A stretch of 32,702 nt of DNA, taken from assembly GCA_008636045.1 (NCBI GenBank), contig SNRW01000067.1, positions 1 through 32,702 on the forward strand, read 5' to 3'. A program made the translations under genes and the position numbers. The notes beneath the pieces were generated by a model. It saw only the letters and a list, made by a program, of their open reading frames with translations, searched no databases and was not told the DNA's origin. Origin of the DNA: Streblomastix strix (Eukaryota). Below, piece after piece: positions 1-20,477 of the stretch (position 1 is the first letter of the stretch; every line of letters starts with the position of its first letter).

Positions 1-721
1 ATAATGATGATTATGATGATGCTATCTTTGAACAAGACGAAATAATATAATACAGAAAAGCAAATTTGTATCTATTTTGCATAAACATTAATACGAAATA
101 TTTAGTGGTATATCCTTTAATAGATAAATCAGCTGCATAAGTAGTTGGAAAATTGTAAAAATTAATTATAAATTGTTACGTAAATTATTTCGGGAGTGGT
201 GGAGAGAAAGGATTTAATGGTTCTTAATTTGCTTTATTTTGTTCAAGAAATAAAATTAATGGTTATTTCACTGATTCAAAGTTCAATAATCATAATAAAG
301 TTGTTGATTCAGTTATTCGTACAATAAGGAATGAATTTAGTTATAAATTTAATTAATTTTCAACAAATTAGTAAATACAAATAATTGTAGATATTTGCAA
401 TAAAACAATGCATCTTGCATTTCAAAATAAATATAGTCCATTTTAAGTTCAATTATCAATAGATTTCAAAAAATATACGTTCATAAATAAAGAAATTAGA
501 GCGATAATTGGTGAGATAAAAATTAGAGAGAATTCTTTCAATTTAAGCAAGAAATATAATTTTAATACATCTTGATATCTAAAAAACATAATAAAAATTT
601 ATGAAATAAAGAAAAAATTTCAATTAATTAGCGATGTTCATTAGATATGTGAATGGTAATGTTTTATGCAGATTATTGAATTATTCATATAAAATAAATC
701 TAATTAAAATAACTTCATATA
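1..721 (+). pseudogene. Degenerate Polinton-type rve integrase, 5' part, truncated by the window edge and split by the 722-19274 insertion
   Basis: TAR=Gln translation gives YLFCININTKYLVVYPL (~69), HNKVVDSVIRTIRN (~291-332) and FNQLAMFIRYVNGNVLCRLL (619-678). These are collinear with the integrase at 8094-9296. Frameshifts are present. Confidence 0.8.
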
Positions 722-1082
722 ACTACTAATTTTAGAGGATATTTGCATCTTTTCTAAAAAGCATAAGCAAATCTTACAAAATAACAGTATCAAAAATCCT
801 CACATTTAAAAATATAAATAGTTATAATATCAATCTTAAAATCTACGAATTTGCAAAATCTTCAAGGACCAACTGGTCGATGCAATAATCGAAAAATCAA
901 CGCAAAAGCACTATTTTAAAGTTAAATTTCAATAAAAAACTAACTTTCTTTGCTCTTAAAAAAATGTGTACTTTAATCAATTTTGTAATACCTTTTAATG
1001 AACAAAGGGTAAATGGTGGTAATAATCGAAGATTATTAGCCCCTTTAAGATATTGATGCAGATAACGAATAAAAATAATCAA
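722..1082 (+). repeat. Left terminal inverted repeat
   Basis: ACTACTAATTTTAGAGGATATTTGCATC... is the reverse complement of 18916-19274. About 5 mismatches in the outer ~215 bp and clearly more in the inner ~145 bp. Confidence 0.96.
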
Positions 1083-1159
1083 AATCTTACAAAATATTAT
1101 TAATTGATTATTTATCTTTAGATAAGTAAATTTTTTTTCATTTTTTTATTTTTATTATA

Positions 1160-4100
1160 AATAGCATTAACCAAATCATTACTATATTCTATATTGAGAG
1201 TATTTAGTTTCTTTACAAGTGAAACTGTTAAATAACTCAAGACTAGAGTGACCTAATTATTGAACGAATTAGGATATCCTAGATACAGATACATTGATAT
1301 ATATTCAATGATGGTGAAAGTTTGTATATTCCCATTAGCAGGCTTTTGTCTTTAAGAGCTAATTGACAAGCATTATGTTTCTCATAGGAAGTAACTATTC
1401 TATCAATAATTTGATTTGAATAATTGCTTCTGGCTATCATATACTTGATTCATATAATAAAGCAAAGTAGTACCAAATCAAATACAGTAGAAAACGGTTA
1501 ATTCGTAGTTGCTCCTTCATCGATTTTCGACATACGAATTACAGTTAATTCGTATCTTCCAATAAAAATTTTAGAAAATTTAAAAATTTTTAAAAAAAAT
1601 TTAAATTTTTACTTCTATTTTATTAAAAAATCATACGAATTAACCGTAGTACGAATTAACCGTAATCTACTGTAATACTTGAAGCTAAAAAATTAATAAG
1701 AGATTCGATAATCTAACGAAGAAGTAATACGATTCATCCATTAACGAATATAAAGAATTTGATATAGTAGAAGAATTAAATAAATTCATTATTTTGAAGA
1801 AGATTAACGTTAACATATTCAATTATGATCAAGATAAAAATTCTATTATTTGAGAGAAAAATAATTGTACTTTAAGATCAAGAATATAAACCTTGATAAT
1901 GACATATAGGAATAAGAATAAATAGAAGAAATACTCTCTATATTTATCATTCTACTAGTTTCGTCCACAAACGACAATTAATACTTTTATCATGTATTCT
2001 ATATAACTAATACAGACTGTTTAACAGGATCAAAATTTTGCCCATACTGTTATTAATAGTCATTTGACCTTAAGGATGATCATTTCAAAAGAAGCAATGA
2101 AAATCATGCTAGTTAATGCAAAATTAATAACGGTAAATAATTAAGAAAGTAAAACTGGGTGAGTAACCGTTCCCACATTGTCCTCATATTTAAAGCAATG
2201 AAACTTAAGCTCATATATTAGCCAAAACAAGAAGCAATAGTTTAAACCATAAGTCTACTTTATAACTTATGATTTTGAAACAGTTGAACGTAGCGTAAAT
2301 AACTATTATGGTAATTCAATTTCTTAAGGTATCTATTATAACTAATGGATATTAGAACTAGTTCAATTATCAGTTGCATCAACTATCAAACTAAAATGGA
2401 GAGAGTAATACTAAAACGATTAACGTAGTAAGAAGATTGATACTTCATTCGGTCCCTCTGCATTAAAGACCATCTATTTTGACATACGTTAAGGCGATGA
2501 TTTTATAACATAATGGATCGAGTAGATATTCGAAGAGGCTAAACAAGTTTCAATAGACAATAAGTATGATAATGACAGAGTTCCATATAAATATAACGTT
2601 TCAATTATTGGTTTCAATTCTAGTAGATTCGATTAAGTTTTATTCTCTAAATACTTGCATAATGATAAATGGATAATTTAAAGTTTCATTGGCAGTTATG
2701 GATGCAGTAAACAGATAGTAGTTGAACATAAACAAACACAGCAACTAATAAATTTTATTGACGCATTGAACAATACTTAGCCAACTGATTTAGACTCATT
2801 TACTGCGGACTTTGAGTCGGATACAAATTAATCAAAAGGGCTATTTCCATATAAAGGTGTATAATATGATAACTATAATTAAGAACTAATCAAATCATAA
2901 CCCTTCTCCATTAAAGTATTTGATTCAATATTGAAAAATAGGAAGATGACTAACGATGAATATTAATTATACTTCAATGATGCTAAAAACTACTCTACAC
3001 GATGGGACTACCTGTAACATTACAATGAATTAGACACATAGATAATGATATAACTGTTAGACAATCTCATTAATTGGTTCTATTAACATAAAGTTGATAT
3101 GCTTAGTTTCATGAGCCTAGCTACTAATGAAAATGCGATTAAATATGCTACAGCATATAAAGATTTCGATTTAAACATTAATTACCCTCAGTAATCAAAT
3201 AAATCAAAGCCTTTCATTCTATCTCAAATCTATTGGAATTCGAAAGTCATAGGATATAACATATTGGACAAATAAAAACATAGAAAGACAAATAATAATA
3301 TAACGATTAATAATTACAATTATTTTAAAGATCTATTCGAACGTTAATCTTGAGTTTTTTGTGGTGATAAATTTACAATGGATAATAAGCCTACTCTAGA
3401 TAGAATTAATAATAAACTACCTCATACTAAATCAAACTGCTAACCTTGTTGCATATATTGCAATCGTTACAAATCGGATAAGGATGAGAAAGTAACGAGG
3501 TTATTTATACAATTTCGTCGATACTATAATATTAATCGTCTTACCTAAACAATTGTAAATGATGAAGTATATTAACTCATTCGTCGTAATATTACTGGTG
3601 GACTATCTAATGTATTGCACCGTTATAATAGAGCAAATATTGATATTATTAAATGATATTATTATAATGAAAACACAAAAACTATAACAGTAATATATAT
3701 AAATCATACTATCTCTCATATCTGCGGAGTAGATTTTAACTCATTATATCCATCTTGTTTCTCATCATAAATTCATCTCTTTTACAAGTACACTAATGGT
3801 ATAATGTATATATGTGGATCAGTAACAGGAATTGTAAAAGATTAAGATAGTGCTAGAAAAGAAATACACTTGGATGATCGATGCACTGATCGAGGACAAC
3901 TATTCATTGCCTAACTGAGGGGACATATTGATGAAAAATACTTTAGTGATTTCGCTAATTGCCCCTCAATTATTTGTAACGTATCATATCAATCAAGCAA
4001 ATCAGTTATCGGGGAATATATGTATGACTAGATGTAATCAGCAGGAGTTAAAACTGATAGATAAGAAAGGAACTTAACTCAGTTATTATCTATTCATAAT

Positions 4101-5155
4101 TAATATATGACTTTTAATTCTTATTACTTATAGTTCTTAATTGATGTTTATCATTTTATAATCAATGATATTAAACAGTTAGTACTGTTTAATAATCATG
4201 CTAAATTTAATATTTTCGTTAACGAATTCATGAATAAATGTATTGAAGCTTTCAAGTAAAAGAATTGTGGATTAGATAAATTTTGTAAGATGATTTTAAA
4301 TGCTTCTTTTGGATCTGATAGTATGAATACTGGGAAATATAATAAAATCAAACTACTAATTAAAGAAAAGAATAAAGAAGTACATACTAAATATTTGTGT
4401 ATGAATGATCGTAAATTAGCGGATAACCTTTAAGCTTTTTAATTTAAACCAAAGAATTGTAAATGTAATACTTGTCTTCAGATAACCTATTTTACACTAG
4501 ACAATGCTACGTATTGGTATCCTAATTTCATGAATAATTTCATATAAAAATATTTGGATATGAATAAGCTTCATTTTGTCGAAAGGGATACTGATTCAAC
4601 TTATTAGGCAATTAGTGGATGATATGTAATTAAAGGTAATGACAATTAATAAGAATATGAAAATAACTTAAATTAAGGTTTCAAATACGTTAACAAGGGC
4701 CAGTAGTTCAATTTTATTTGTGCTAAATACTTCATTCCAACAATATATGTAGATAAATAAGACGAAAAGAAATTATTAGGTTTATCTATCGAAAATGAAG
4801 GAGATGAGATGTTTGCATTAGCTCCCAAAAATTACTATATTCATATATTTAAATGAAATTAGCTGACTGATGTTATCAAACTTAAAAGATTTAATCTTCA
4901 ATAGAACAATATAAACAAATAAGATGTGATTTATAATCTTGTTAATGGAAAAATAACACAACGAACTAATATTCGATTAGGTTAATAATCAGACTAACTG
5001 TAAGAAGAATAATTCTCAAAGTCCTGTTGTATGAATAAGTTATTATCAACTAAGAATGCGCAAACAGGCATACAAACTAAGATGATTGTATTGAAAAATA
5101 GTTAAAGTTGTTTACCATTTATCTATGAATTAACTGCTGATAGTTATTCAGACTG
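1160..5155 (+). pseudogene. Protein-primed family B DNA polymerase (pPolB), with vOTU-like N-terminal region and HNH insert; disrupted
   Basis: Motifs: NNCFW (~1420), YFYHVFYI (~1985), ExoI YDFET (2268), ExoII GFNSSRFD (~2610), KGLFPY, ExoIII HYNELD, RNITGG, VDFNSLYPS (3729), KMILNASFG (4287), DTDS (4587), APKNY. Disrupted by in-frame TGA at 3351, 3654, 4620 and 4854, a frameshift near 2225 and a MITE. Start and stop are approximate. Confidence 0.93.
1485..1672. mobile_element. 188-bp Tc1/mariner(pogo)-type MITE inserted in the pPolB gene
   Basis: TA duplication at 1483-1484 and 1673-1674. 23-bp TIRs CAGTAGAAAACGGTTAATTCGTA / TACGAATTAACCGTAATCTACTG (2 mismatches). Removal rejoins ...VVPNQI|ILEAKKL. 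Confidence 0.9.
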
Positions 5156-6280: not shown

Positions 6281-6296
6281 TTTTAATTATCTAAAA

Positions 6297-6530
6297 ATGT
6301 ATGTATAAGAATATATGAGATATAGCTAATTCCTATCACCATTACTCTGTTTAGATACTAAATCAGATCCAATGATAGAACAATGATTCATTCTACATTA
6401 ATATAATAAACGATTGATGAAGGAATAATTAAAATATATTATAGAATAAGTATAAGTAAATAGCAAAGATGCATTACTGTTATTGATGATTATGTTGGAT
6501 GACAAAAGATTAAGAAAAATAAATTGTTCA
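6297..6530 (+). pseudogene. Degenerate paralogue of the small ORF at 7530-7760
   Basis: MYVQEYMRYSQFLSPLLCL...IEQ*FILHQYNKRL...LLLLMIMLDDKRLRKIN. It has one internal TGA and has lost the terminal stop. Confidence 0.6.
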
Positions 6531-6559
6531 ATTTCACTCTTATTTTTGATTATCAGAGC

Positions 6560-6971
6560 TTAAACCTATAGTTTTATATTTCTCTTTATCTTATTTTTGT
6601 TTTTAATACTTATATTTTTCAAGTATATTAATTATAGTGATTATATCTTTATCATCTAATTTTACCTTTTAAATTTATCGAATAGCTGTATGTTATAAAT
6701 CAGTGATTGTTTATCTAAATTGTTCAATGATTTAAAATTGTTTTTTTAATATATCTCATTATTCTCTTGATTTATTTTTAGTTTCTTCTATTGTACTATA
6801 TTTCTTAAGTCTTCCACATTTAACACCTTCTTTTCTTTCATATTTACATTTCGGTTTAATCAAAGTGTTTGTGTCAGTCTGCTCTGTAGGTTTTCCACAG
6901 GAAGTAGCTTTACTTTCGGTAACATTAATAGTCTCATTGTTATTCAATTTATTAATTGATTCAATTTTCAT
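6560..6971 (-). pseudogene. AT-hook-like basic protein, copy A; 3' end approximate
   Basis: KYERKEGVKCGRLKKY; paralogue of 7760-8116. In-frame TGA at 6758-6756. Confidence 0.55.
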
Positions 6972-7515
6972 TAGGTAAAAAAGTATATTTATACTTAATA
7001 TCTAATTTTTCTAGATCATTGCTTACCTTCTTAGCGAAATAAATAGGTATTTTAACTTACTATATATCTTTATACAGTTTCAATAATCTATAGATTATAT
7101 TACCATGCTAATACTTCTCGAATATTGCCAACTCCTTAAGTTACCTATGTTATATATTAAATTAATGAGACATCTTTTATAAATCAAGGTGAATCAGTAT
7201 GATATTACCTTTTGTTAATTTTGTTAGTTAATTCTACGACTATTTAACAGCATTTAATTTTCTCATTTAAGATCGTATATATTTATCTTCTAAATTTAAC
7301 TTAATTGGTTACTATGATGATGACTATTGTGGATACTTTTAAACTGTAAAGCTATTAATCATGAATAATTATTAATTACCTTAATAATTATCTTTGCTTA
7401 GTTGTTATTAAATCAAGTATCTAATATAATTATTAGTATACCCACTTAAACCAGCTTGACCTATTTTATTAACTATTTATTATAAAAATGGTTTAGAATC
7501 ATTTTTTAGGCTCAT
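6961..7515 (-). CDS. Chimeric 184-aa ORF: N-terminus of the MSL-family hypothetical protein fused in frame to the integrase C-terminal domain
   Basis: Open from ATG 7515 to TGA 6963-6961: MSLKNDSKPFLQQIVNKIG...PIKLN|LEDKYIRSQMRKL...GNIILIHLDLQK...IPIYFAKKVS...FLPNEN*. Confidence 0.65.
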
Positions 7516-7529
7516 TTAAATTAATTAAA

Positions 7530-7760
7530 ATGTAAGTACAAGAATATACGAGATATAGCTAATTCCTATCATCATTAGACTGTTTAGCTAGTAAATCAGA
7601 TCGAAGGATAGAACTATGTTTCATTCTACGTTAATATAATAAACGATTGAAGATGGAATAATTAAAATAGGTTATAAAATAAGCATAAGTAAACAGTTAA
7701 GAAGCATTATTATTATTGATGACTATGTTAGGTGACAAAAAATTAAGAAAAATAAATTGA
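7530..7760 (+). CDS. Small hypothetical protein (76 aa)
   Basis: MQVQEYTRYSQFLSSLDCLASKSDRRIELCFILRQYNKRLKMEQLKQVIKQAQVNSQEALLLLMTMLGDKKLRKIN*. Conserved with the paralogue at 6297. Confidence 0.65.
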
Positions 7761-8116
7761 ACAGTACTATCTTTTACTTTATTCTATGTCAGTGTCTTTT
7801 TAATCTTATACTTTTTTATTTATATTTATTCTTGTATATTAATTATATTGATTATATCTTATTCTTCTATCTTTACCTTTTAAATCTATCGAATAGCCGT
7901 ATGTTATAATTCGGTGATTGTTTATCTAAATTGTTTATTGATTTCATATTGTTTCTTTTTAAATACGTTTCATTATTATCTTGCATTATTTTTAGCTTCT
8001 TCTATTGTATTATATTTCTTAGGTCTACCACATTTAACACCTTCTTTTCTTTCATATTTACGTTTTGGAGTAATCACCTCATTGTTATTTTATTCATTTG
8101 TTGGTTCCATTTTCAT
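7760..8116 (-). CDS. AT-hook-like (KCGRPKKY) basic DNA-binding protein, copy B, with one in-frame TGA; 3' end approximate
   Basis: MKMEPTNEQ...PKRKYERKEGVKCGRPKKYNTIEEAKNNARQQ*NVFKKKQYEINKQFRQTITELQHTAIRQI. Overlaps the integrase stop. Confidence 0.6.
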
Positions 8117-9296
8117 TAGGTAAAAAAGTATATTTATATTTAATATCTAAATTTTCTAGATAACCACTTACCTTCTTAGCGAAATAAATAGGTATTTTAA
8201 CTTACTATATGTCTTTAGCATTTATGCCGACAGCTTTGCTGATATATAGTTTCAATAATCTACAGATTATATTGCCATGCTAATACTTCTCGAGTATTGC
8301 CAACTCATTAAACTATCTACGCTATTTTTTAAATTAATGAGACATCTTTTATAAATCAAGGTGAATCAGTATGATATTCCCCATCGTTAATTTTGTAAGT
8401 TAATTCTACTATTATTTAATATCATCTAATTTTCTCATTTAAGATCGTATATATTTTCCTTCCAAATCTTCATCCTTATTAATCTAAGTAGGACTATATT
8501 TTAATTCAAAAACATTATGAGGCTTATCATTATAGTATTTAACTATCTGTAACATTAACTTTGGATTAGCCATTTCTTGACCAATAAAAGCATCTCTAAT
8601 GGTTCGAATAACTCTGTTAACTACTCTATTTTTATTTGAGAATTTTGATTTACTCATGTAATACTATATATGAAGAGCTGATAAGAAATCTTATACCATT
8701 TTACTTCCAATAGCACTTTCACCATCAGACCTTATATTAGTTACATGTTACTATTTGATTAATTAAACTAGACACCTTAATATCTCTTCTTATGTTTTAT
8801 TCTTAATCTCATAAACATCAAAGATTTAGGTATTGATATTAATACAGAATAGGTAATCTTGTTTACCAACTCCGTTGGCGTTATAAATAATATCAACAAA
8901 TTCAATTTCTATTTCCCATGATCCTAATGTTTTAGAGAAGTAAGGTCTATAGAATTGCTTTAATGGTTTTGCCCTCCAATTTTATATTTTATTCTATTTA
9001 TCGAATAGATTTGAAATTTACTATTAATTCTCATGAACTAATTTAAGTCCATAAACTTTTTATTATCCTTTGGTGCTAGTTATGCGATATTAATTGAATT
9101 TATCTAGGTATTATTTATATAACTCAGCTACTGTTTTAACATTTCTTACTTTAGAGTCCAAACCTGATTCTGTGAATTATTTTTCTAAGTCATTTGAGAT
9201 AAAATTGGTTTTAAATTAACGATTCGAACTAGTTACAAAGTCTTTCAAACTCAACTTATTTATTTCATAAGCCTTATCATTAATAAATTTGTTCAT
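8094..9296 (-). CDS. Retroviral-like (rve) integrase of Polinton type, 400 aa
   Basis: Uninterrupted under TAR=Gln: RPYFSKTLGSWEIEIEF, YLFCININT, IRSDGESAI, NRVVNRVIRTIRDAF, VKYYNDKPH, then an SH3-like C-terminal region. No chromodomain seen. Confidence 0.9.
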
Positions 9297-9455: not shown

Positions 9456-10458
9456 TCATTGAATATATTACAACTCTAATAGTGAATTGTTATATATGTC
9501 CGTAAACTAATTAGGTATTCTTCTTCCGAAATTATCATACAATTGAAATACAAAGGATCTATTCATTCCCATTAATCCTGCTTGTGATAGCATATTTTAA
9601 CCCCAAAGAACAGGTGCTCCAATTAGATTCTATTTATAACACAAATTCGAAAACCTTACATTGATAATGGTTTACATTATTGATCCCTACTTTTGATTAT
9701 CAACACATATAACTAACATCTGGTGTATTCTAAAAAATTACCAATATAAGGGTAAAAGATAGATATATCCGATAATAATGATTATTAATTATATTTATTT
9801 TTATAGAATCAATCTTATAGTTCAATTATTTTTTCGTTAAAAGAAATTTTAACCAATTGATTAGCATTATTTTAGTTATTACCATCATATAAATCTAATC
9901 CACCTGTTAATTATATATATAAGTTGTTAGATAATACTACACTATCAATATACCAATTTTAATGTGGTTTAGAATTATATTCATTAATAAAAGATGTTAT
10001 ATATTGACCATATTAATTAAAAAGTTAAATATCAGTATATATATCCTTCCATTATTATACATTTAACGCAGGTAATGAACATATCAATCTAACGGGAAAT
10101 GTATTTATGCTATTACTAATTTATTACATTGATGCTGATTATACATTAATTGGTGTAGTATCCGTTTCAGTTAAATTTCCATTTGTTAATGTAATCTATT
10201 TTCTATAATTATATCTTTTATTAATGTTATATGGATAATCACTACCCCACCTTATAGAGGTTCTGTGGTTGATTAAAAGTTATTAGATGAGGGTTCACAT
10301 ATTTTTATTAGACTAAAACACCTACATGCTATAGATAAATAACGATCAAATATCCAATAGTTGTATAAGAAAGCGTCCAAACGTAAATTTGTATAGTTTA
10401 ATGCAGGGCTATATATATCTATCGCGTTATTAATATTTAAACTGTTTGTATTATTCAA
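9456..10458 (-). pseudogene. Putative minor capsid protein (penton), frameshifted
   Basis: C-terminus FVFQLYDNFGRRIPN...LLELQYIQ* resembles the I.L.D..G..I penton ending of Polintons. ~330 codons, beta-rich composition. The start appears mutated (TAATTG) and there are frameshifts. Confidence 0.6.
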
Positions 10459-10943
10459 TTAATTTTATAAGTTTCACTTCACATGTCTGATAATTGGAAA
10501 GAACGAAGTATTTGTTGCTGTTTCATTCTTACTTAACATCGATAGTAATTTATCATTGCAAGAAATGCATTTCTGTCTAAAGAAATTGTGACAACATAAC
10601 CGTAAGAAATTCTTATAAAATGCTTGCTCATATCTCTCGTAATCTATGAATGATTTATTTCAATAGTTTCAATTACAATCACCTTCATTTGACTTTTGTT
10701 CTGAATTATATGTTGATGAAGATGGATAAAACATTAAAATAGTTACAAATTAAGTATGTAAAAATCTAAATTTTAAATTTAAAATTGAATATATTTATTA
10801 AACTTTTAAACTTTTCTAAGAAATATTTTTTTAACCAACAGGCATTTATTCATTGATCATTGTAAAAACTTGGAGACAGTACAAGTGTTGAATTTTTCCA
10901 TTTAAATATTTCAAAATTGAACCATCTGAGATCATTAAAAATA

Positions 10944-11033
10944 ACTGTCTATTTTTTGAAAATTTAGAGTGGCAGCAAAAACGGCCCCAAAGTGGCTGCT
11001 GCCACTCAAAATCGTACTTAAAAAAATAGCAGG
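10944..11033. repeat. GC-rich imperfect palindrome flanked by a 9-bp direct repeat (possible miniature insertion or cis element)
   Basis: Perfect 11-bp stem GAGTGGCAGCA (10967-10977) / TGCTGCCACTC (10997-11007). Outer arms CTATTTTTT / AAAAAATAG. TTAAAAATA at 10935-10943 and 11034-11042. Confidence 0.6.
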
Positions 11034-11074
11034 TTAAAAATACTATTCTTGTGGATCAACGAACTCGTTGATTT

Positions 11075-11480
11075 CAAATTATTTCAAAGCATTAACCTAT
11101 GTGTTATACATATAAGACTATTTATTTGAATCTAGTGCATATATACTATTTATTATAGTATTCATCTTAATTCTAATTCGTGTAAGATACTCAATAGCAT
11201 CTAGTTTAAACGTTCCATTTGAATTCTTAACTTATTGATACAAATTTGGTGCTTTTAAATTATGTCTTAGTTCAATATAATCATCATCATTGAAGAAACA
11301 TAGATTTAAAGGTATATTGTTCATGCTGTTACTTTAAAATTATCTATATCCAGTAGGGGCTTAAGCTATCTATTCAACGTAATCATTTTCGCTATCATTG
11401 TTAATTATTTACGACTGTATTTAAGCTATTTGTTCAAAGCAAAAATAGACTTAGTGTAGATTGAAAGATTGAATATTCTC
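11075..11480 (-). CDS. Hypothetical viral protein (start unclear)
   Basis: Open frame ...APTGYRQFQSNSMNNIPLNLCFFNDDDYIELRHNLKAPNLY...HIGQCFEII* directly downstream of KilA-N. Confidence 0.4.
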
Positions 11481-12297
11481 AATAAATTGACGGTTCTTTA
11501 ACAGTATTTTTGATTGTTTCCATTATTTCATTTGTATTTTAATCATTTGGAATAGTAAATTTAAGGTTTTTCATTTTGATATTTCTATCGTTTAACTTCT
11601 CTTTAATTTCATAATTAGTTATATTAGCAATAGGTAAATTACCAGTGATTAGAGTAGACCTTTTAAATAAAGTTGGTTAATTCTTTAAACAACTTCTATG
11701 TAATCTATGAACTTTGTATTATTTTCCATCAATGTCTTCGATAATGAGTTCAATTGAGTAAACATAATCGTATTATCTATCTTATGGAACTAATCTTGGT
11801 TCCATATGTTATATTGTTTTACTATAGTCAGTGTTCTCACGTTAAAGTTGTTCGATTATTCTATCCTTATTATCATCAAACGTTAAATATGTTAATTACA
11901 TATTTTCGTTACTTAAATCTATTATCTAACTAACATTATGCAAGTATTTTATACTAGTTTTCATACAGATGAAATTGATTAGTTCTTTACATATATGCGT
12001 TCCTCTTACCTCATTATTATATTCATTTACTAGTTAATATTCTAGGGGGAGGGGTTGGCTCATTTTTGATCCAGCCCCTTCATAACTGATAAATTACTAC
12101 ATTTCTCTTTACATTGGTAATCTAGTTAAATTTTTCAATAATTTATTTGTAAAATCCTTTTCATTAATAAGTTGTACTAATTTGGTGGAATTAACGTATC
12201 CATCTTAATCTCTTATCATTATCTCAAATCCATTATATGTTCCGATAGTAAAGATTGCGTTATTGGATGAAATTATAGTTGCTACAAGTTGAGTCAT
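11479..12297 (-). CDS. KilA-N (APSES-like) DNA-binding domain protein, 272 aa
   Basis: GTYNGFEIMIRDQDGYVNSTKL...EVRGTHICKELINFICMKTSIKY, followed by a coiled coil. KilA-N genes are typical of metamonad Mavericks and large DNA viruses. Confidence 0.85.
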
Positions 12298-12582: not shown

Positions 12583-12656
12583 TTTTATTAAGATAAAAAT
12601 AATAAATTCAATTTAATAAAGATTTAAAGTAAATTTAGTCTACTTTCTATTGTTAA

Positions 12657-12940
12657 TCAATCAATTATTTTTCTTCCTGTGTTATCTTTTTCAATTATAT
12701 CTTCTATTATATATTGTTTACATCAATTGGATAGATATACTGGTACTATCCGTATTACTTAAAAAACTTGTAGTACTTTGTTTTACCATTTTTAGATTCG
12801 GTTAATTAATAGAATTGTTTGTTGTATAATCTTAGATCATTAAACTTATACTCACCAATCTTATCAACAACCTTACCGTTAGTCATAATATTATACTGCA
12901 ATTAATGGAATTTTTATTTATCTTCTTATGAGTAACTCAT
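12657..12940 (-). CDS. Small hypothetical protein (~90 aa; may contain a frameshift)
   Basis: MSYSQEDKQKFHQLQYNIMTNGKVVDKIGEYKFNDLRLYNKQFY... Confidence 0.4.
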
Positions 12941-12978: not shown

Positions 12979-13191
12979 TCACTATCTCGAACCATTAATG
13001 TATCGATCTACTCCAACGACTATTCGTTACCCTACTCTCATAGCTGCTCTTACACCTGGATGAATCATACTAACAGGTGCAGCTAATGAACCTATAACTT
13101 TATTCAATGTTGGAGCTACCCAACTTGCAGCCTTAGTTGTACCCCCTAATATTTTACTACCGAAATTCTTAAGACCTGACCAAAAACAAAT
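12979..13191 (-). CDS. Adenovirus protein VI-like amphipathic (membrane-penetration) peptide, ~70 aa; start codon apparently mutated
   Basis: xxFWSGLKNFGSKILGGTTKAASWVAPTLNKVIGSLAAPVSMIHPGVRAAMRVGQRIVVGVDRYINGSRQ*. Head-to-head with the capsid gene. Confidence 0.7.
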
Positions 13192-13250
13192 TTATTTTAT
13201 TAAAAAATAATTAAAGTTAACGTTTATGCTGTTTCCTTTTTATTATCTAA

Positions 13251-15215
13251 ATGTCATTTGCATCAAGCGATTATTTGAAACGATTAACTTCAGCGTAACA
13301 TTCGGATTACATTAATTCATAATCAAAATTCTAGGAAATAATGCAGACTCAAACTATTGTAGCATAATCATTTAGTACGTCTAAGTAAAAATTCTTTGAT
13401 TAACCATTAATTCAACTTACGAATGATGGTGCACATTGTACTGGAGCTCCACTTGCAGCAAGAGGTACTGCCACATGTTCATGTGTTAAAACTTGTAAAA
13501 TCAGTTGGTAAATATACACACCAGCAAAAACATTAACGATAAAGGTTAATTTAGTGCAATCTAATGGAGCTGAAGGTTAAGTTTAAAATCGATAAATATC
13601 TAATTATAATGTTATTGTTACAGGATTATGGAATTCACCTTAAACAGTAATAATGGAATCAGGAGAAGAAGAAACGAAGTAGGATTATAACTTTGACGAA
13701 TATATTAGATTTTGGTTAGGTTTCTCAACAGCTTGTGGACCATCTAATTAGATTGTTATATATAAGGATTCATAGAAATTACGGGATATTTCAATATATG
13801 CAAGAGAATAAGCAATAATCTCATCAAACTCATTGACCGATTAATTTACCTCTAATTCTGTAACAGTTTCACCACTTGAAAGTATGGTATAAAATAAACG
13901 ACATTGTGGGATATTTATTGATATACAAGTATTTAAGATTAGAGTTGCAAGTTCTTATTATTATTTGATTCCTTATGACATAATATTTAATGGAGTAATG
14001 GATTTGAACTAATTGAATACTATCTTTAACAACTTTCCTGTATTAACTAAAAATTATGCGTCATTGTGTATTTAATTATGGATGTAAGATTTCTTATAAG
14101 ATTTGAAGATTGTTTGGTTAAATAAATATAACCCAGTAGATAATTCATATATAGCCTATACAATGATTCCACCGGCGATACAGGATATAATTTACTTGAA
14201 AAATAGAGCTGCAGCAGTGGTTTAGGATAAATACAATATTCGATTAGTTAATATAGAAGGTAAACCTAATACAACTACTATACCTACAGCTACTATTAGT
14301 TAAATTAAAATTGCTAAATTTAATGAATTGAACATAAATAATCTATATTTTAATATGGAGAATGAAGGTGTAATTGTTGATATGATTCATAATCAAAGAC
14401 TCGTTAATTTTCCAACATAAGTTCAACATACTTAATCATCTAATTATCCTGCAAGTAATATTGGTGATGGAGGTGGATTTATTTAAACAATAATGTAATT
14501 TGCTAACATCAAGTCTATGTTTGTTACTTTCGCTATGCCATAATATCCTATATGGATCTTCGTTGCTCCGTTCAAAAATATTGATTTGATTATATATTAA
14601 CATCATGTTATTCCAAGTGCTTATCTAGCTTTATCATAAGATGTCAGCGGTTAAATGTTTGATTGTTTCGTTGATTAAGATGTAGTTAATGCATCATCCG
14701 ATTTATATCATTCATTAGTGATTGAAAACCAATATATAGATGATAAGAATTATCCTTATGGAATTGAATATCTTGAAATAGGGGGATAACTTAGACCTGT
14801 ATCAAACCTATTTTATGAAACAACATTATATAATGGTTCTAATGCAATAAAAGTATTCTATCCTAATAAGTTTATGCTAGCATGGAAATTTGCTACTGAA
14901 GATTCATTTATGAGGGGATATAACTTATCTAAGTTAGGAGTAAGAACTAATATATAAGTATAAATTGGATTTAAATCTATAGATAATATATGTTCTGATG
15001 AACCTATAAGATCTGCTCTAATTGATTAAATTGATTTAAAATACTTTAAATCAACTAGATATTATCCAAATGTTAAGAATTCCAAATTTACACCATTAAC
15101 TTATTATCTATGCGATGGAATTGTTCGAATAATGTTTGATGATAACCCAGATCTATAAGTACTATCGTTAGAGGTTATTGGTGAAATAGGAGGTAGTGCT
15201 ATTCGTAGTGGATGA
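13251..15215 (+). CDS. Putative double jelly-roll major capsid protein, 654 aa
   Basis: Fully open 655-codon frame under TAR=Gln (checked codon by codon), beta-rich (IRFWLGFSTACGP, IFNNFPVLTKNYASL, YYLCDGIVRIMFD). It is the longest intact ORF and lies upstream of the packaging ATPase. The fold is inferred from size and context. Confidence 0.8.
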
Positions 15216-15241: not shown

Positions 15242-15673
15242 ATGAGTCAAGACCAATAGAAAGTATTCAAAGCATTAACGACAAAGATAATCAAAGACAA
15301 TTTTAAACAAAAATAAATGAATTTTGTATCATTATTCTTATCAATTTTTAATTATATATTCTACGGAGCTAACTTCTTATTATCTATTATTAGTTTATCG
15401 ATAACAGATCAAACGTAAGAATTAATCAACGTATTTAAAAAACTATGGAGTTATTTTGATGTGATAGTGATTCCAATTAGTATTATAATCTATATTGTTA
15501 AATTCATCTATCATCGTAAAATGAACACAATAAAAAAGGACTAACATTGCAGTTAATATACGATTGATGAGTTATATTAGTTAGTATAATTAGCGATTGA
15601 AAATAAAGATCTTAAATTAGCTTAGCATTATCGATACTTAATTACATTAAAATTAATTAATTAACACAATTGA
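15242..15673 (+). CDS. Membrane protein with two predicted transmembrane helices, 143 aa
   Basis: Hydrophobic segments FVSLFLSIFNYIFYGANFLLSIISLSI and YFDVIVIPISIIIYIVKFIY. Intact; TAAATG start. Confidence 0.7.
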
Positions 15674-15674
15674 A

Positions 15675-16706
15675 ATGAGTTCATCTGAAATAAAGCAAAT
15701 ATAGTTTGATACTTATAATATGCTAGACGAATATAAAACAAAACCACTAACGCCTAAATCTATCTTCCTTATTAACGCAAACCATTATAATGTAGGAGCT
15801 GTTGGAAGTGGTAAAACAACATTAATGAGTAAACTAATTATATTGTATAAACATATAATTAACCTCCAAATATTATACTTCTCAAACTTGCTACAGGATG
15901 AAAGTATGTCATTAAATATGAATGATAAAAATATAACAATTAATAGCATAATTTATAAAGATGCAATGATGTTCTTACCTCAATTCGATGAGATTTAATA
16001 CAAGGTTAAAGAGATATATGCCTATCTGAAATTAAAATAAATGAAAATTATATATAGTAGTGATTATATTAAATAACGCAAATAGAATATATATGTTAGT
16101 AATGAATTAAAGAAGGTTGAAACGAATTAATAATTTACAACTAGAGTGAAAGAGTAATTTAAAATCTATTGGATTGAAACAATTAATGAATATAACTAGC
16201 CTACAAAATTAATATAACAAACTATCCCCTCGTTAGCTTAAAATGTTAGTTATGAGAATAGATTGAAAATAATTGATACATAAGAAATAGACGAAGATGG
16301 AGTATCAATAATTAAACCACTAAAATTACTAATACTTTTAAATGCACGATTATTATCTACATTAATGATCATTGATGATATTGGTTCTAATACAGATATA
16401 TAAAGATATACTTAATAGTTATCTCGTACAATAACTCATCACGTTAGTTATAGTAGACATTCTAATAATACACTATTCTTTGTTACTTAATGGATGTAAT
16501 ACTTGTTTAAAACTGCTCAAATATTATGTCATGTGACAGTCCTTAGGGCTAACCTTGGAAAAAGTGGATTTAAATAGATTTATAATGAGAATAATATAAA
16601 CATATTATCGGAGTAAGAGCTAATGATATTATATAATACATCGAATAAGTATGATTTTATTGCTATTAATAAGTGGTTATAACGATTTGAAATTATTAGA
16701 TAATGA
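15675..16706 (+). CDS. A32/FtsK-HerA family DNA packaging ATPase, 343 aa
   Basis: Walker A GAVGSGKT, Walker B LMIIDD, A32 signature SRHSNNTLFFVTQ. Intact under TAR=Gln. Confidence 0.92.
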
Positions 16707-18373: not shown

Positions 18374-18919
18374 ATGGATAAATCACAAGCCTTAAGAAAA
18401 ATGAAAGAAAATGGAACTACATTCAAAAGCTTTAATGGAGGTTATCTAATGTAAATAGGTATGTATATTAAAATATTTGAAGATGGTTAGAAGATCCCTA
18501 AAGTATTAACATAAGCTTAATAGAATAAGTTGTTATAGATGCCGATAATAAAAGAATAAGACGATTGATTAGTATATCAAGATGATGAAGATGAAAGTGA
18601 AGAAGAATAAGAAACATAAGTTCTAACAGTTAAAAAGAAGGTTAAAGCAATATAAAACTAACCCACTATTAAATATACTACTCTTTAAATAGATCTTGAA
18701 GAGCTAATTAAATTGCGAACTGAAAATTAATTCATCAAGTAATAACATATAGAATCGTAAAAGCAAATTAATAAATATAAGAATAAACTTAAATCAATGA
18801 AATAAGTTAAAAAACCTACAATTAAAGAATTAGTTAAAGAAGAACCTATCGAATAAGATTCACAACCAATTTAATAACAATTTAGTGAAAGATACCTTAA
18901 TGAGTTCGAGTTATATTGA
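18374..18919 (+). pseudogene. Hypothetical acidic/coiled-coil protein (~181 aa) with one in-frame TGA
   Basis: MDKSQALRKMKENGTTFKSFNGGY...DDEDESEEE...YLNEFELY*. The stop abuts the inner edge of the right TIR. Confidence 0.55.
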
Positions 18920-19274
18920 TTATTTTTAATCATTATCTGCATCGTTATCCTAAATGTGCTAATAATATTCGATTATTACCACTATTTACCCTCTGTTCCT
19001 TAAAAAGTATTACAAAATCGATTAAATTAAGCATTTTTTTAAGAGCAACGAAAGTTATTTTTATTGAAATTTAACTTTAAAATAGTGCTTTTGCGTTGAT
19101 TTTTCGATTATTGCATCGACCAGTTGGTCCTTGAAGATATTGCAAATTCGTAGATTTTAAGATTGATATTATAACTATTTATATCTTTAAATGTGAGGAT
19201 TTTTGGTACTGTTATTTTGTAAGATTTGCTTATGCTTTTTAGAAAAGATGCAAATATCCTCTGTAATTAGTAGT
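18916..19274 (-). repeat. Right terminal inverted repeat
   Basis: Ends ...GATGCAAATATCCTCTGTAATTAGTAGT; reverse complement of 722-1082. Confidence 0.96.
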
Positions 19275-19351
19275 CATATTATTGCAAATATATTTCTGAA
19301 AATAAAGTATCTAATTAAAAATATTATGCAACAGAGTTTTTATTTAAGTGA
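19275..19351 (+). pseudogene. 3' end of the interrupted integrase whose 5' part is 1-721
   Basis: Joining through the TSD gives ...LIKITS|YYCKYISENKVSNQKYYATEFLFK* (TGA 19349-19351), which aligns with VKIPIYFAKKVSGYLENLDIKYKYTFL of the 8094-9296 integrase. Confidence 0.75.
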
Positions 19352-20147
19352 AAAAATAAAAAATTATTTATTTATTTATTAATTTTTTATCGAATAATAA
19401 ATAGCAGCAATTGAGTATATCAACGAGATAATCAACGAAGCGACATAAACTGAATCATCGCAAAATGAATCAACCGCAGGCGAAATCTAAGAGATAATAT
19501 CTTCAACAAAACAAGGATGTTTCAAAAGTTAATGATATGCAATTATTGATAATCAAAAATTTTAAAAAAATGATGTTTATTAATGAATCTACAATTGTTC
19601 ATCATTGTCAATTTCATCAAACAAATCATTACAATAATCGGCCAATTAGTCGATGACATTTATTCAATTTCATCAATAAAATTTGATTCGACTGATTCTA
19701 TTAATCATCTTATGCTAACCAAATAAGGTGATACATATCGCTTAAATCATTGATTTGAGCTATAAGTTGTGAGAGAAAAAGAAGCCTGAGCAAACTCGGC
19801 AAACGTGCATCAAAAGTCGCACTGCATAAAAGAATCACATTAATTGTTGAAACAGTGCATATTAATATCTATTTCCATTGCTTAATTTATTGTTTATCTA
19901 TTATTTTACTTCCATAAATTTATTCACGAACAATATTCCATCAATTGTTTTGCAACAATAAAATTATTCGAATATAATAATCAATACAAATAACGATATT
20001 CAACAATTTAAAATCAATAATTTACACAATTTCAGGATTTTGACAATTCTATTCAGTAATCATATATCATCTGTATGTTAGAACCATATGGTTTTCTGGA
20101 CCAAACAATTGAGGTGCTTTTGTCATGTTAGCGCAGACTTATTTTTC

Positions 20148-20477
20148 TCTCACTTCTAAGCAGTGATCTTCTGCAATACGAAGAATAAAGTAGATTGGCT
20201 CACAGATAAAATGAGGAAATCTGGATTTACTGTAGTATCTATGCATGATGGTATGAAATAGAAAAAACGTAATACAATTATGGACAAGTTTAGACGTGGA
20301 GAAGCTAGAGCATTGATCATAACAGATATCTGGGCTAGATAAATAGATGTAAGTCATGTATCTTTTATAGTTAACTATGATATTTCAGAGAATAGAGAAT
20401 TATATATTTATAGAATTTGGAGACTTGGAAGATATGGAAGAAAAGGTGTTGCAATCTCATTTGAGAAATGCCAATGA
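20148..20477 (+). pseudogene. EIF4A3: eIF4A-III (DEAD-box helicase) C-terminal domain fragment
   Basis: [19 protein letters not shown]...TDIWARQIDV...[27 protein letters not shown] and NRELYI are eIF4A3-like. Motif VI is degenerate and no N-terminal domain lies nearby. Confidence 0.85.

Follow-up and report, generated by a model that had tools for sequence, protein, structure and literature searches.

A start-less copy of a conserved gene in a Streblomastix strix Polinton-like element, whose product may be a capsid-packaged amphipathic peptide that ruptures the host membrane at entry

The window analysed here (the whole stretch of 32,702 nucleotides of contig SNRW01000067.1 from Streblomastix strix) contains an 18.5-kb integrated Polinton-like element, within which a small gene for an amphipathic peptide stands head-to-head with the major capsid gene. 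The features of the element are listed in order along the window, with + and - for the strand and a dot where no strand applies.

716..721,., likely target-site duplication, left copy, 6 bp (CATATA)
722..1085, +, left terminal inverted repeat, starting ACTACT; inverted-repeat matches of 222 nt at 97% and 150 nt at 87%
2202..4622, +, family B DNA polymerase, fragmented over several frames
8094..9296, -, retrovirus-like integrase (rve E 0.0013, under the curated cut-off)
11479..12297, -, KilA-N domain protein (PF04383, E 1e-9)
12979..13191, -, peptide gene (70 codons) that has lost its start codon; in sisters the product is amphipathic, 69-70 aa long and begins MGFW
13144..13185, -, FWSGLKNFGSKILG, core of the amphipathic helix at the N-terminus, common in part to virophage capsid tails and adenovirus pVI
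13192..13250,., AT-rich spacer of 59 bp that separates the divergent genes for peptide and capsid; the match to sister contigs breaks off immediately upstream of where the peptide starts
13251..15215, +, major capsid protein, 654 aa, probable double jelly roll (low-confidence model); ends E[IL]GGxxxxG, no basic tail
15567..16706, +, P-loop ATPase (GAVGSGKTT; weak AAA matches under cut-off), likely for packaging; its start is uncertain
18913..19274, -, right terminal inverted repeat, terminal letters AGTAGT
19275..19280,., likely target-site duplication, right copy, 6 bp (CATATT)

The element is a Polinton-like virus, integrated and in decay, whose group has been reported from S. strix before; the virus is present many times over in the genome of this termite-gut protist, and its named relatives are from this organism. 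It has the terminal inverted repeats, placed at 717-1085 and 18913-19279 by the inverted-repeat search, and the target-site duplication (five of six letters in agreement) that are used to recognize Polintons and Polinton-like viruses. Its ends, ACTACT (722-727) and AGTAGT (19269-19274), are presumably the reverse of Polinton termini. Genetic code 6 is in use: the 654-codon capsid frame contains 32 TAA and 5 TAG codons and no TGA. Code 11 was rejected, the window being nearly devoid of long ORFs under it and the capsid frame being open only under code 6. The motifs of pPolB, the rve integrase and the packaging ATPase are visible, with Pfam scores under cut-off or none; the polymerase pieces in particular had no Pfam match among the window translations and were assigned by YDFET, DFNSLYPS, KMILNASFG and DTDS, which we take to be family B motifs. 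No adenain-type maturation protease was found in the window by Pfam or in the translations, a search of low sensitivity on a decayed copy, and a virophage protease profile made from five sequences, likewise of low sensitivity, gave a best E of 0.07; because Pfam missed the polymerase too, the absence of the protease is uncertain. In its host label, code 6, integrated state and capsid gene, the element resembles the endogenous Polinton-like viruses of the Metamonada capsid group described from S. strix in the accessible text of PMC10120064.

Several minor features accompany these genes. An internal duplication (6282-7295 and 7515-8467, 86-89% identity) takes in the 3' part of the integrase, and between the integrase and KilA-N genes (9456-11546, -) lie several ORF pieces, one of which may be a penton gene. 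Outside the element are a further integrase fragment (1-575) and a fragment of a helicase C-terminal domain (20088-20477, +; PF00271, E 7.5e-23), probably a piece of a host DEAD-box gene.

Read under code 6, as it must be, the minus strand from 13191 to 12979 translates as ICFWSGLKNFGSKILGGTTKAASWVAP...INGSRQ*, with a TGA stop at 12979. This copy lacks a start codon: ATT TGT, that is Ile-Cys, stands at 13191, where contigs of two studies carry an ATG-GGT start. A C is present at 13188 in 15 and at 13189 in 14 contigs of run X1, in 9 of X2 (the second study) and in 3 of X3; the X4 contigs do not span 13188-13189. The copy differs from sister P0050 at 12 of 69 residues, its helix has a hydrophobic moment of 0.407 as against 0.556 in the sister, and it is very probably dead. 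The sister value, calculated over residues 2-19, was matched by 31 of 5,000 shuffles and compares with 0.48-0.51 for the pVI equivalents and 0.56-0.59 for virophage tails; the peptide is also cationic (net charge +6). The first-pass annotation had proposed a stand-alone peptide with the helix at its N-terminus, encoded by an amphipathic ORF divergent from the capsid gene across a gap of about 60 bp. Our measurements agree with this, and the gene is moreover conserved and its helix strongly amphipathic. The annotation had further called the product Gly/Ala-rich, which describes a sister (32% Gly+Ala) better than this copy (23%), and had expected sister copies to carry an ATG at 13191 followed by Ser; the ATG is there, but the sisters start M-G-F-W and not M-S-F-W. 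In 55 of 68 sequences the second residue is Gly, and N-terminal myristoylation was therefore considered; the Phe beside this Gly and a Ser placed one position early suit the rules for that modification poorly.

Directly downstream on the same strand is a 110-aa ORF (12608-12940, -) with no Pfam family above cut-off; a sequence similar to it is fused to the peptide in P0074 and P0110, which marks it as a conserved neighbour. We also considered that the conservation might be due to an extension of the plus-strand capsid frame, which is open from 12573. This was rejected, since full-length sister capsids begin MSF and the changes in the sisters restore the minus-strand ATG.

That the peptide gene is real is virtually certain. 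In a sequence search, 14 of 15 candidates were relatives, with E values of 2e-28 to 6e-14, and four clusters held 42 members, 41 of them named S. strix. The frame is kept in the sisters, as the first-pass annotation required: of 52 sister proteins, 38 have a length of 69-70 aa and 34 start MGFWS (within MGFWSGLK), and the differences listed for sister contigs include no indel inside the peptide frame. The variant tables, which mix window-specific changes with sister variation, were not used as a selection test. From one subfamily to another, the peptide is roughly on a par with the capsid in sequence identity (56-76% among five subfamily representatives and 56-75% among six capsid representatives, the two sets not being paired by element). 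In five peptide/capsid pairs the locus tags follow one another and the contigs are equal in length, and antisense capsid text lies upstream in 10 of the 22 longer, mis-extended peptide matches; the head-to-head layout is thus general. Loose ends of sister contigs fall at 13194-13196, within the 59-bp spacer, which we infer may be a shared promoter of the peptide and capsid genes.

Beyond the close sisters, a wide profile search of 1.84 billion proteins returned 78 matches at E<=0.001. By sequence, these are mostly further subfamilies (MGFFSGLK, MGFFSKIA, MGFFSGIA, MSFWSVLK), together with four short metagenome peptides (P0135, P0137, P0143, P0146) and two fungal-type repeat proteins. These four are short stand-alone relatives, of which P0135, P0143 and P0146 score 28-41 bits; when viral contigs were scanned with P0146, the matches were all short and fell in long proteins unrelated to it, and its Atlas matches were unnamed and weak. 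No virophage capsid and no pVI is among the 78, so neither link is significant database-wide. The six loci of a metagenome scan comprise three virophage capsid tails and three chance matches antisense to transposase, with no sister element with flanks among them, and Pfam returned no family for the window peptide at E<=1. Separately, P0134 and P0148, the latter named fungal, are secreted-looking repeat proteins in which amphipathic units lie between KR or R sites; these units are possibly processed into peptides.

The capsid gene starts with an ATG at 13251, on the strand opposite to the peptide. The relatives listed for its product, at least 120, are all named Streblomastix strix, and some are annotated as major capsid protein. 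Folded with 66 sequences, the protein gave a model of pLDDT 50 (32 from the single sequence). With this model, Foldseek returned double jelly-roll capsids throughout the 30 matches listed, at a TM of about 0.2, headed by PBCV-1, mavirus and Sputnik (E 3e-4 to 1e-3), and VIA returned such capsids in six of its best seven matches (best Z 6.9, rmsd 4.4, 128 aligned). The 654-aa protein is thus a probable double jelly-roll capsid on the evidence of the model; the capsid profile had no match among PDB sequences. Among the matching S. strix capsids, 44 of 45 stop seven residues after GE[IVL]G, and by their sequences these capsids are without a C-terminal tail of the virophage type. The S. strix and virophage capsid cores have no profile similarity, which argues that the two are not close kin. 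As an observation on its own, the conserved capsid end E[IL]GGxxxxG (15170-15215) recalls the processed end of virophage capsids.

The first-pass annotation had likened the start of the peptide to the membrane-lytic helix of adenovirus protein VI, residues 34-54 of pVI (10.1101/857581). The match itself is exact: WSGLKNFGS equals residues 41-49 of pre-protein VI (PDB 9ych) at nine of nine positions, and the peptide has the amphipathic helix with WSG[IL]KNFGS that characterizes pVI. A KA follows at an equal offset in 28 of 36 pVI loci, the hydrophobic moments are similar, and a hydrophobic residue stands where pVI has L40, a residue that reduces lysis when mutated (PMC8310329). A specific link to adenovirus is not supported by closer comparison. 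The pVI matches have E values of 0.17-4 and are not significant; no PF02993 (MCPVI) match was obtained for the window peptide or, at E<=10, for three sisters, a profile to which a true pVI scores E 3e-66; and past the core the similarity is at shuffle level (z 0.41, equalled by 69 of 200 shuffles), with 4,230 of 6,549 tape-measure windows scoring as well. Unlike pVI, the peptide has neither the 33-residue propeptide nor the C-terminal protease cofactor and is 69 rather than about 250 aa long; and whereas pVI is cleaved by adenain at an xGG site, the sister peptides have their starting Met two residues ahead of the core and are complete at 69-70 aa. The peptide is not a pVI by membership, but it probably works like one; common descent with pVI is, on the sequence comparison, possible and rather doubtful.

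A virophage capsid tail is the closer match. When viral contigs were scanned with the core, 51 loci were obtained: 36 pVI, 4 virophage capsids, 8 tape-measure-like phage proteins and 3 others. A first viral scan had returned four contigs, all with Sputnik-type capsid genes; Pfam verified three of these and showed penton and protease-like genes beside them. Sputnik-type capsid tails open with DFWSGLKNFGSK, immediately behind the GG site at which the mature Sputnik capsid ends, and in the four capsids the tail start reads GG or GSG followed by DFWSGLKNFG[SA]K. The solved Sputnik V20 chain stops at residue 508, which aligns to the GG-type site. In a further search the helix lay behind such a site in 21 of 21 capsids, and capsids fetched by their core alone, not by the motif, bear diverged versions of it. 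A profile of 23 virophage tails scored five S. strix peptides at 21.8-32.5 bits (best match over positions 2-58), and on controls it gave 8.5-14.2 bits for pVI, 2.7-7.5 for tape-measure-like proteins and 0.3-1.5 for those of fungal type. In the reciprocal comparison, virophage loci reached 4.5-20.1 bits and pVI 6.8-10.7. The similarity spans about 55 residues, with a pairwise hhalign E of 3e-11, and the mean post-core score of the virophage tails (17.4) was reached by 33 of 6,549 tape-measure windows and 0 of 2,220 capsid-core windows. The virophage clade was first found via the motif itself. Pfam returned no family for four virophage tails. The Sputnik-type tails with a helix near-identical to that of pVI after GG are L001:5582-5863, L002, L003, L004, L065, L066, L071, L072 and P0053-P0073.

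In mavirus, the capsid tail is cleaved at GG motifs and the amphipathic helix of its first fragment has been proposed to serve in endosome rupture (Born 2018, PMC6048507); in the supplement, this fragment has an SF start, a nearby NF and a GYG end, as in Sputnik-type tails. The peptide thus resembles the virophage capsid C-terminal domain (mavirus MCPC1; the 87 residues absent from mature Sputnik V20) in being amphipathic and in its xFWSGLKNFGSK start, the latter being that of one Sputnik-type virophage clade. The virophage tail is fused to the capsid, from which the viral protease releases it by a cut at GG, and it continues into a basic segment, whereas the S. strix peptide has its own gene on the strand opposite to the capsid, a Met-Gly start and no basic segment. 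By these comparisons, the peptide is probably a free-standing counterpart of the virophage capsid tail, and common descent of the two is the reading we favour, with reserve.

The same core could alternatively be a common solution for a cationic helix lying on a membrane surface, arrived at independently in three lineages for the same lytic job. Eight of the 51 motif loci are tape-measure-like, one of them keeping eight of nine core residues (two of four such proteins scanned match PhageMin_Tail), and this bears out, for pVI taken alone, the caveat of amphipathic convergence made in the first-pass annotation. In profile comparison the S. strix peptides come no closer to pVI (E 7e-8, 15 columns) than to tape-measure segments (E 1e-8, 30 columns), which themselves stand at z 2.3-4.8 over column shuffles. 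Two fungal-type repeat proteins pass E 0.001, and in the profile-picked P0134, 58 of 423 windows exceed the virophage post-core mean, so unrelated amphipathic proteins can score well; the nearest named Atlas cluster is cecropin (0.79), a lead only. Against an independent origin, the 11-residue FWSGLKNFG[SA]K occurs in only the 4 virophage loci of the 51, and the similarity to virophage tails goes on past the core, through ITKA and a later I(P)HP turn; we regard independent origin as rather unlikely. A GG-x-F site precedes the helix in 36 of 36 pVI and 4 of 4 virophage loci and in 0 of 11 others, but since the proteases are related this is partly expected and is not an independent proof of kinship.

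Other roles were weighed for the peptide itself. As an internal capsid protein without lytic function, its helix would sit in the capsomer as an assembly scaffold or chaperone; the mavirus tail has a scaffolding role (Born 2018, PMC6048507), the pre-pVI helix binds hexon (PMC8310329), and the gene adjoins the capsid gene. Yet the peptide keeps the aromatic amphipathic N-terminus and lacks the basic end that virophage tails have, and scaffold and lytic roles are compatible. A purely internal role seems improbable. More improbable still is a membrane-active peptide acting outside the virion, whether in release, in killing bacteria or rival elements, or as a host-domesticated antimicrobial peptide: its charge and amphipathicity and the cecropin-like lead would suit such a function, but the sequence shows neither an evident signal peptide nor a pro-region, the tie to the capsid gene is kept across subfamilies, and the best match is a capsid tail.

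A membrane-active role in the virion is, on present comparisons, likely, and we lean towards the reading that the window holds a start-less copy of a conserved gene whose product would be packaged in the capsid and would rupture the host membrane at entry. Peptide and capsid would be co-expressed from the common spacer, and removal of the Met would leave an N-terminal Gly-Phe-Trp resembling the ends made by protease in virophages (GG/DFW) and pVI (GG/AF). The peptide would be kept inert within the capsomer and freed on uncoating, and after release in a host vacuole or endosome its Phe/Trp face would insert into the membrane and bend it, as the pVI helix does (PMC8310329). By analogy, it is plausible that the peptide needs no protease, uncleaved pre-pVI being able to disrupt liposomes and the masking being done by hexon (10.1101/857581). 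For the virophage tail, too, membrane activity is a proposal. The first-pass annotation had taken the helix to imply real infectious virions, which this decayed copy does not show; the conservation of the gene suggests past selection for an extracellular stage and is no proof of present virions.

Small predicted membrane-active virion genes are known from Polinton-type viruses, namely Cupiennin, PLA2X and GasderminX (PMC8502044, 10.1101/341131), and the Macc class, which takes in pVI, is polyphyletic and based on prediction (PMC11071296). Like Macc and the adintovirus Cupiennin, the peptide gene is a small predicted membrane-active gene in a Polinton-type virion module; those belong to animal-associated viruses and are likened to the S. 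strix peptide by description, not by sequence, and no Cupiennin was recognised among the peptide relatives of the sequence search or the 78 wide-search matches. The peptide is not described in the accessible text of PMC10120064, whose main text contains neither 'amphipathic' nor 'adenovir', and the accessible parts of PMC11161782, PMC12220804 and PMC11296320 mention neither the peptide nor a sequence similarity between virophage tails and pVI. A literature search that took in few subscription papers returned no account of the peptide, no stated virophage-tail/pVI similarity and no linking of the three.

The near-identity between the pVI helix and the one that opens virophage tails, both of them right behind a GG protease site, turns a published guess on virophage entry into a specific prediction and provides a candidate origin for pVI. 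We entertain, tentatively, that the pVI helix, the virophage tail and the free peptide might go back to a single ancestral module with which non-enveloped double-jelly-roll viruses penetrated membranes, and which would have been rewired in three ways: behind a propeptide in pVI, behind the capsid in virophages, and as a free gene in which a start codon replaces the protease cut. If true, pVI would have originated in viruses of protists, and an entry mechanism would be at hand for Polinton-like viruses. Being short and kept in dozens of copies and several subfamilies, the peptide offers a cheap and direct assay bearing on membrane crossing by Polinton-like viruses and virophages and on the infectivity of protist endogenous Polintons.

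A further amphipathic segment, GFFGKIWDKVVKAWN, was noticed in a protein of about 430 aa from large viral contigs (L073:8001-8036 and L076:8001-8036), where it follows an acidic linker and an ILREA motif; it is likely another convergent helix.
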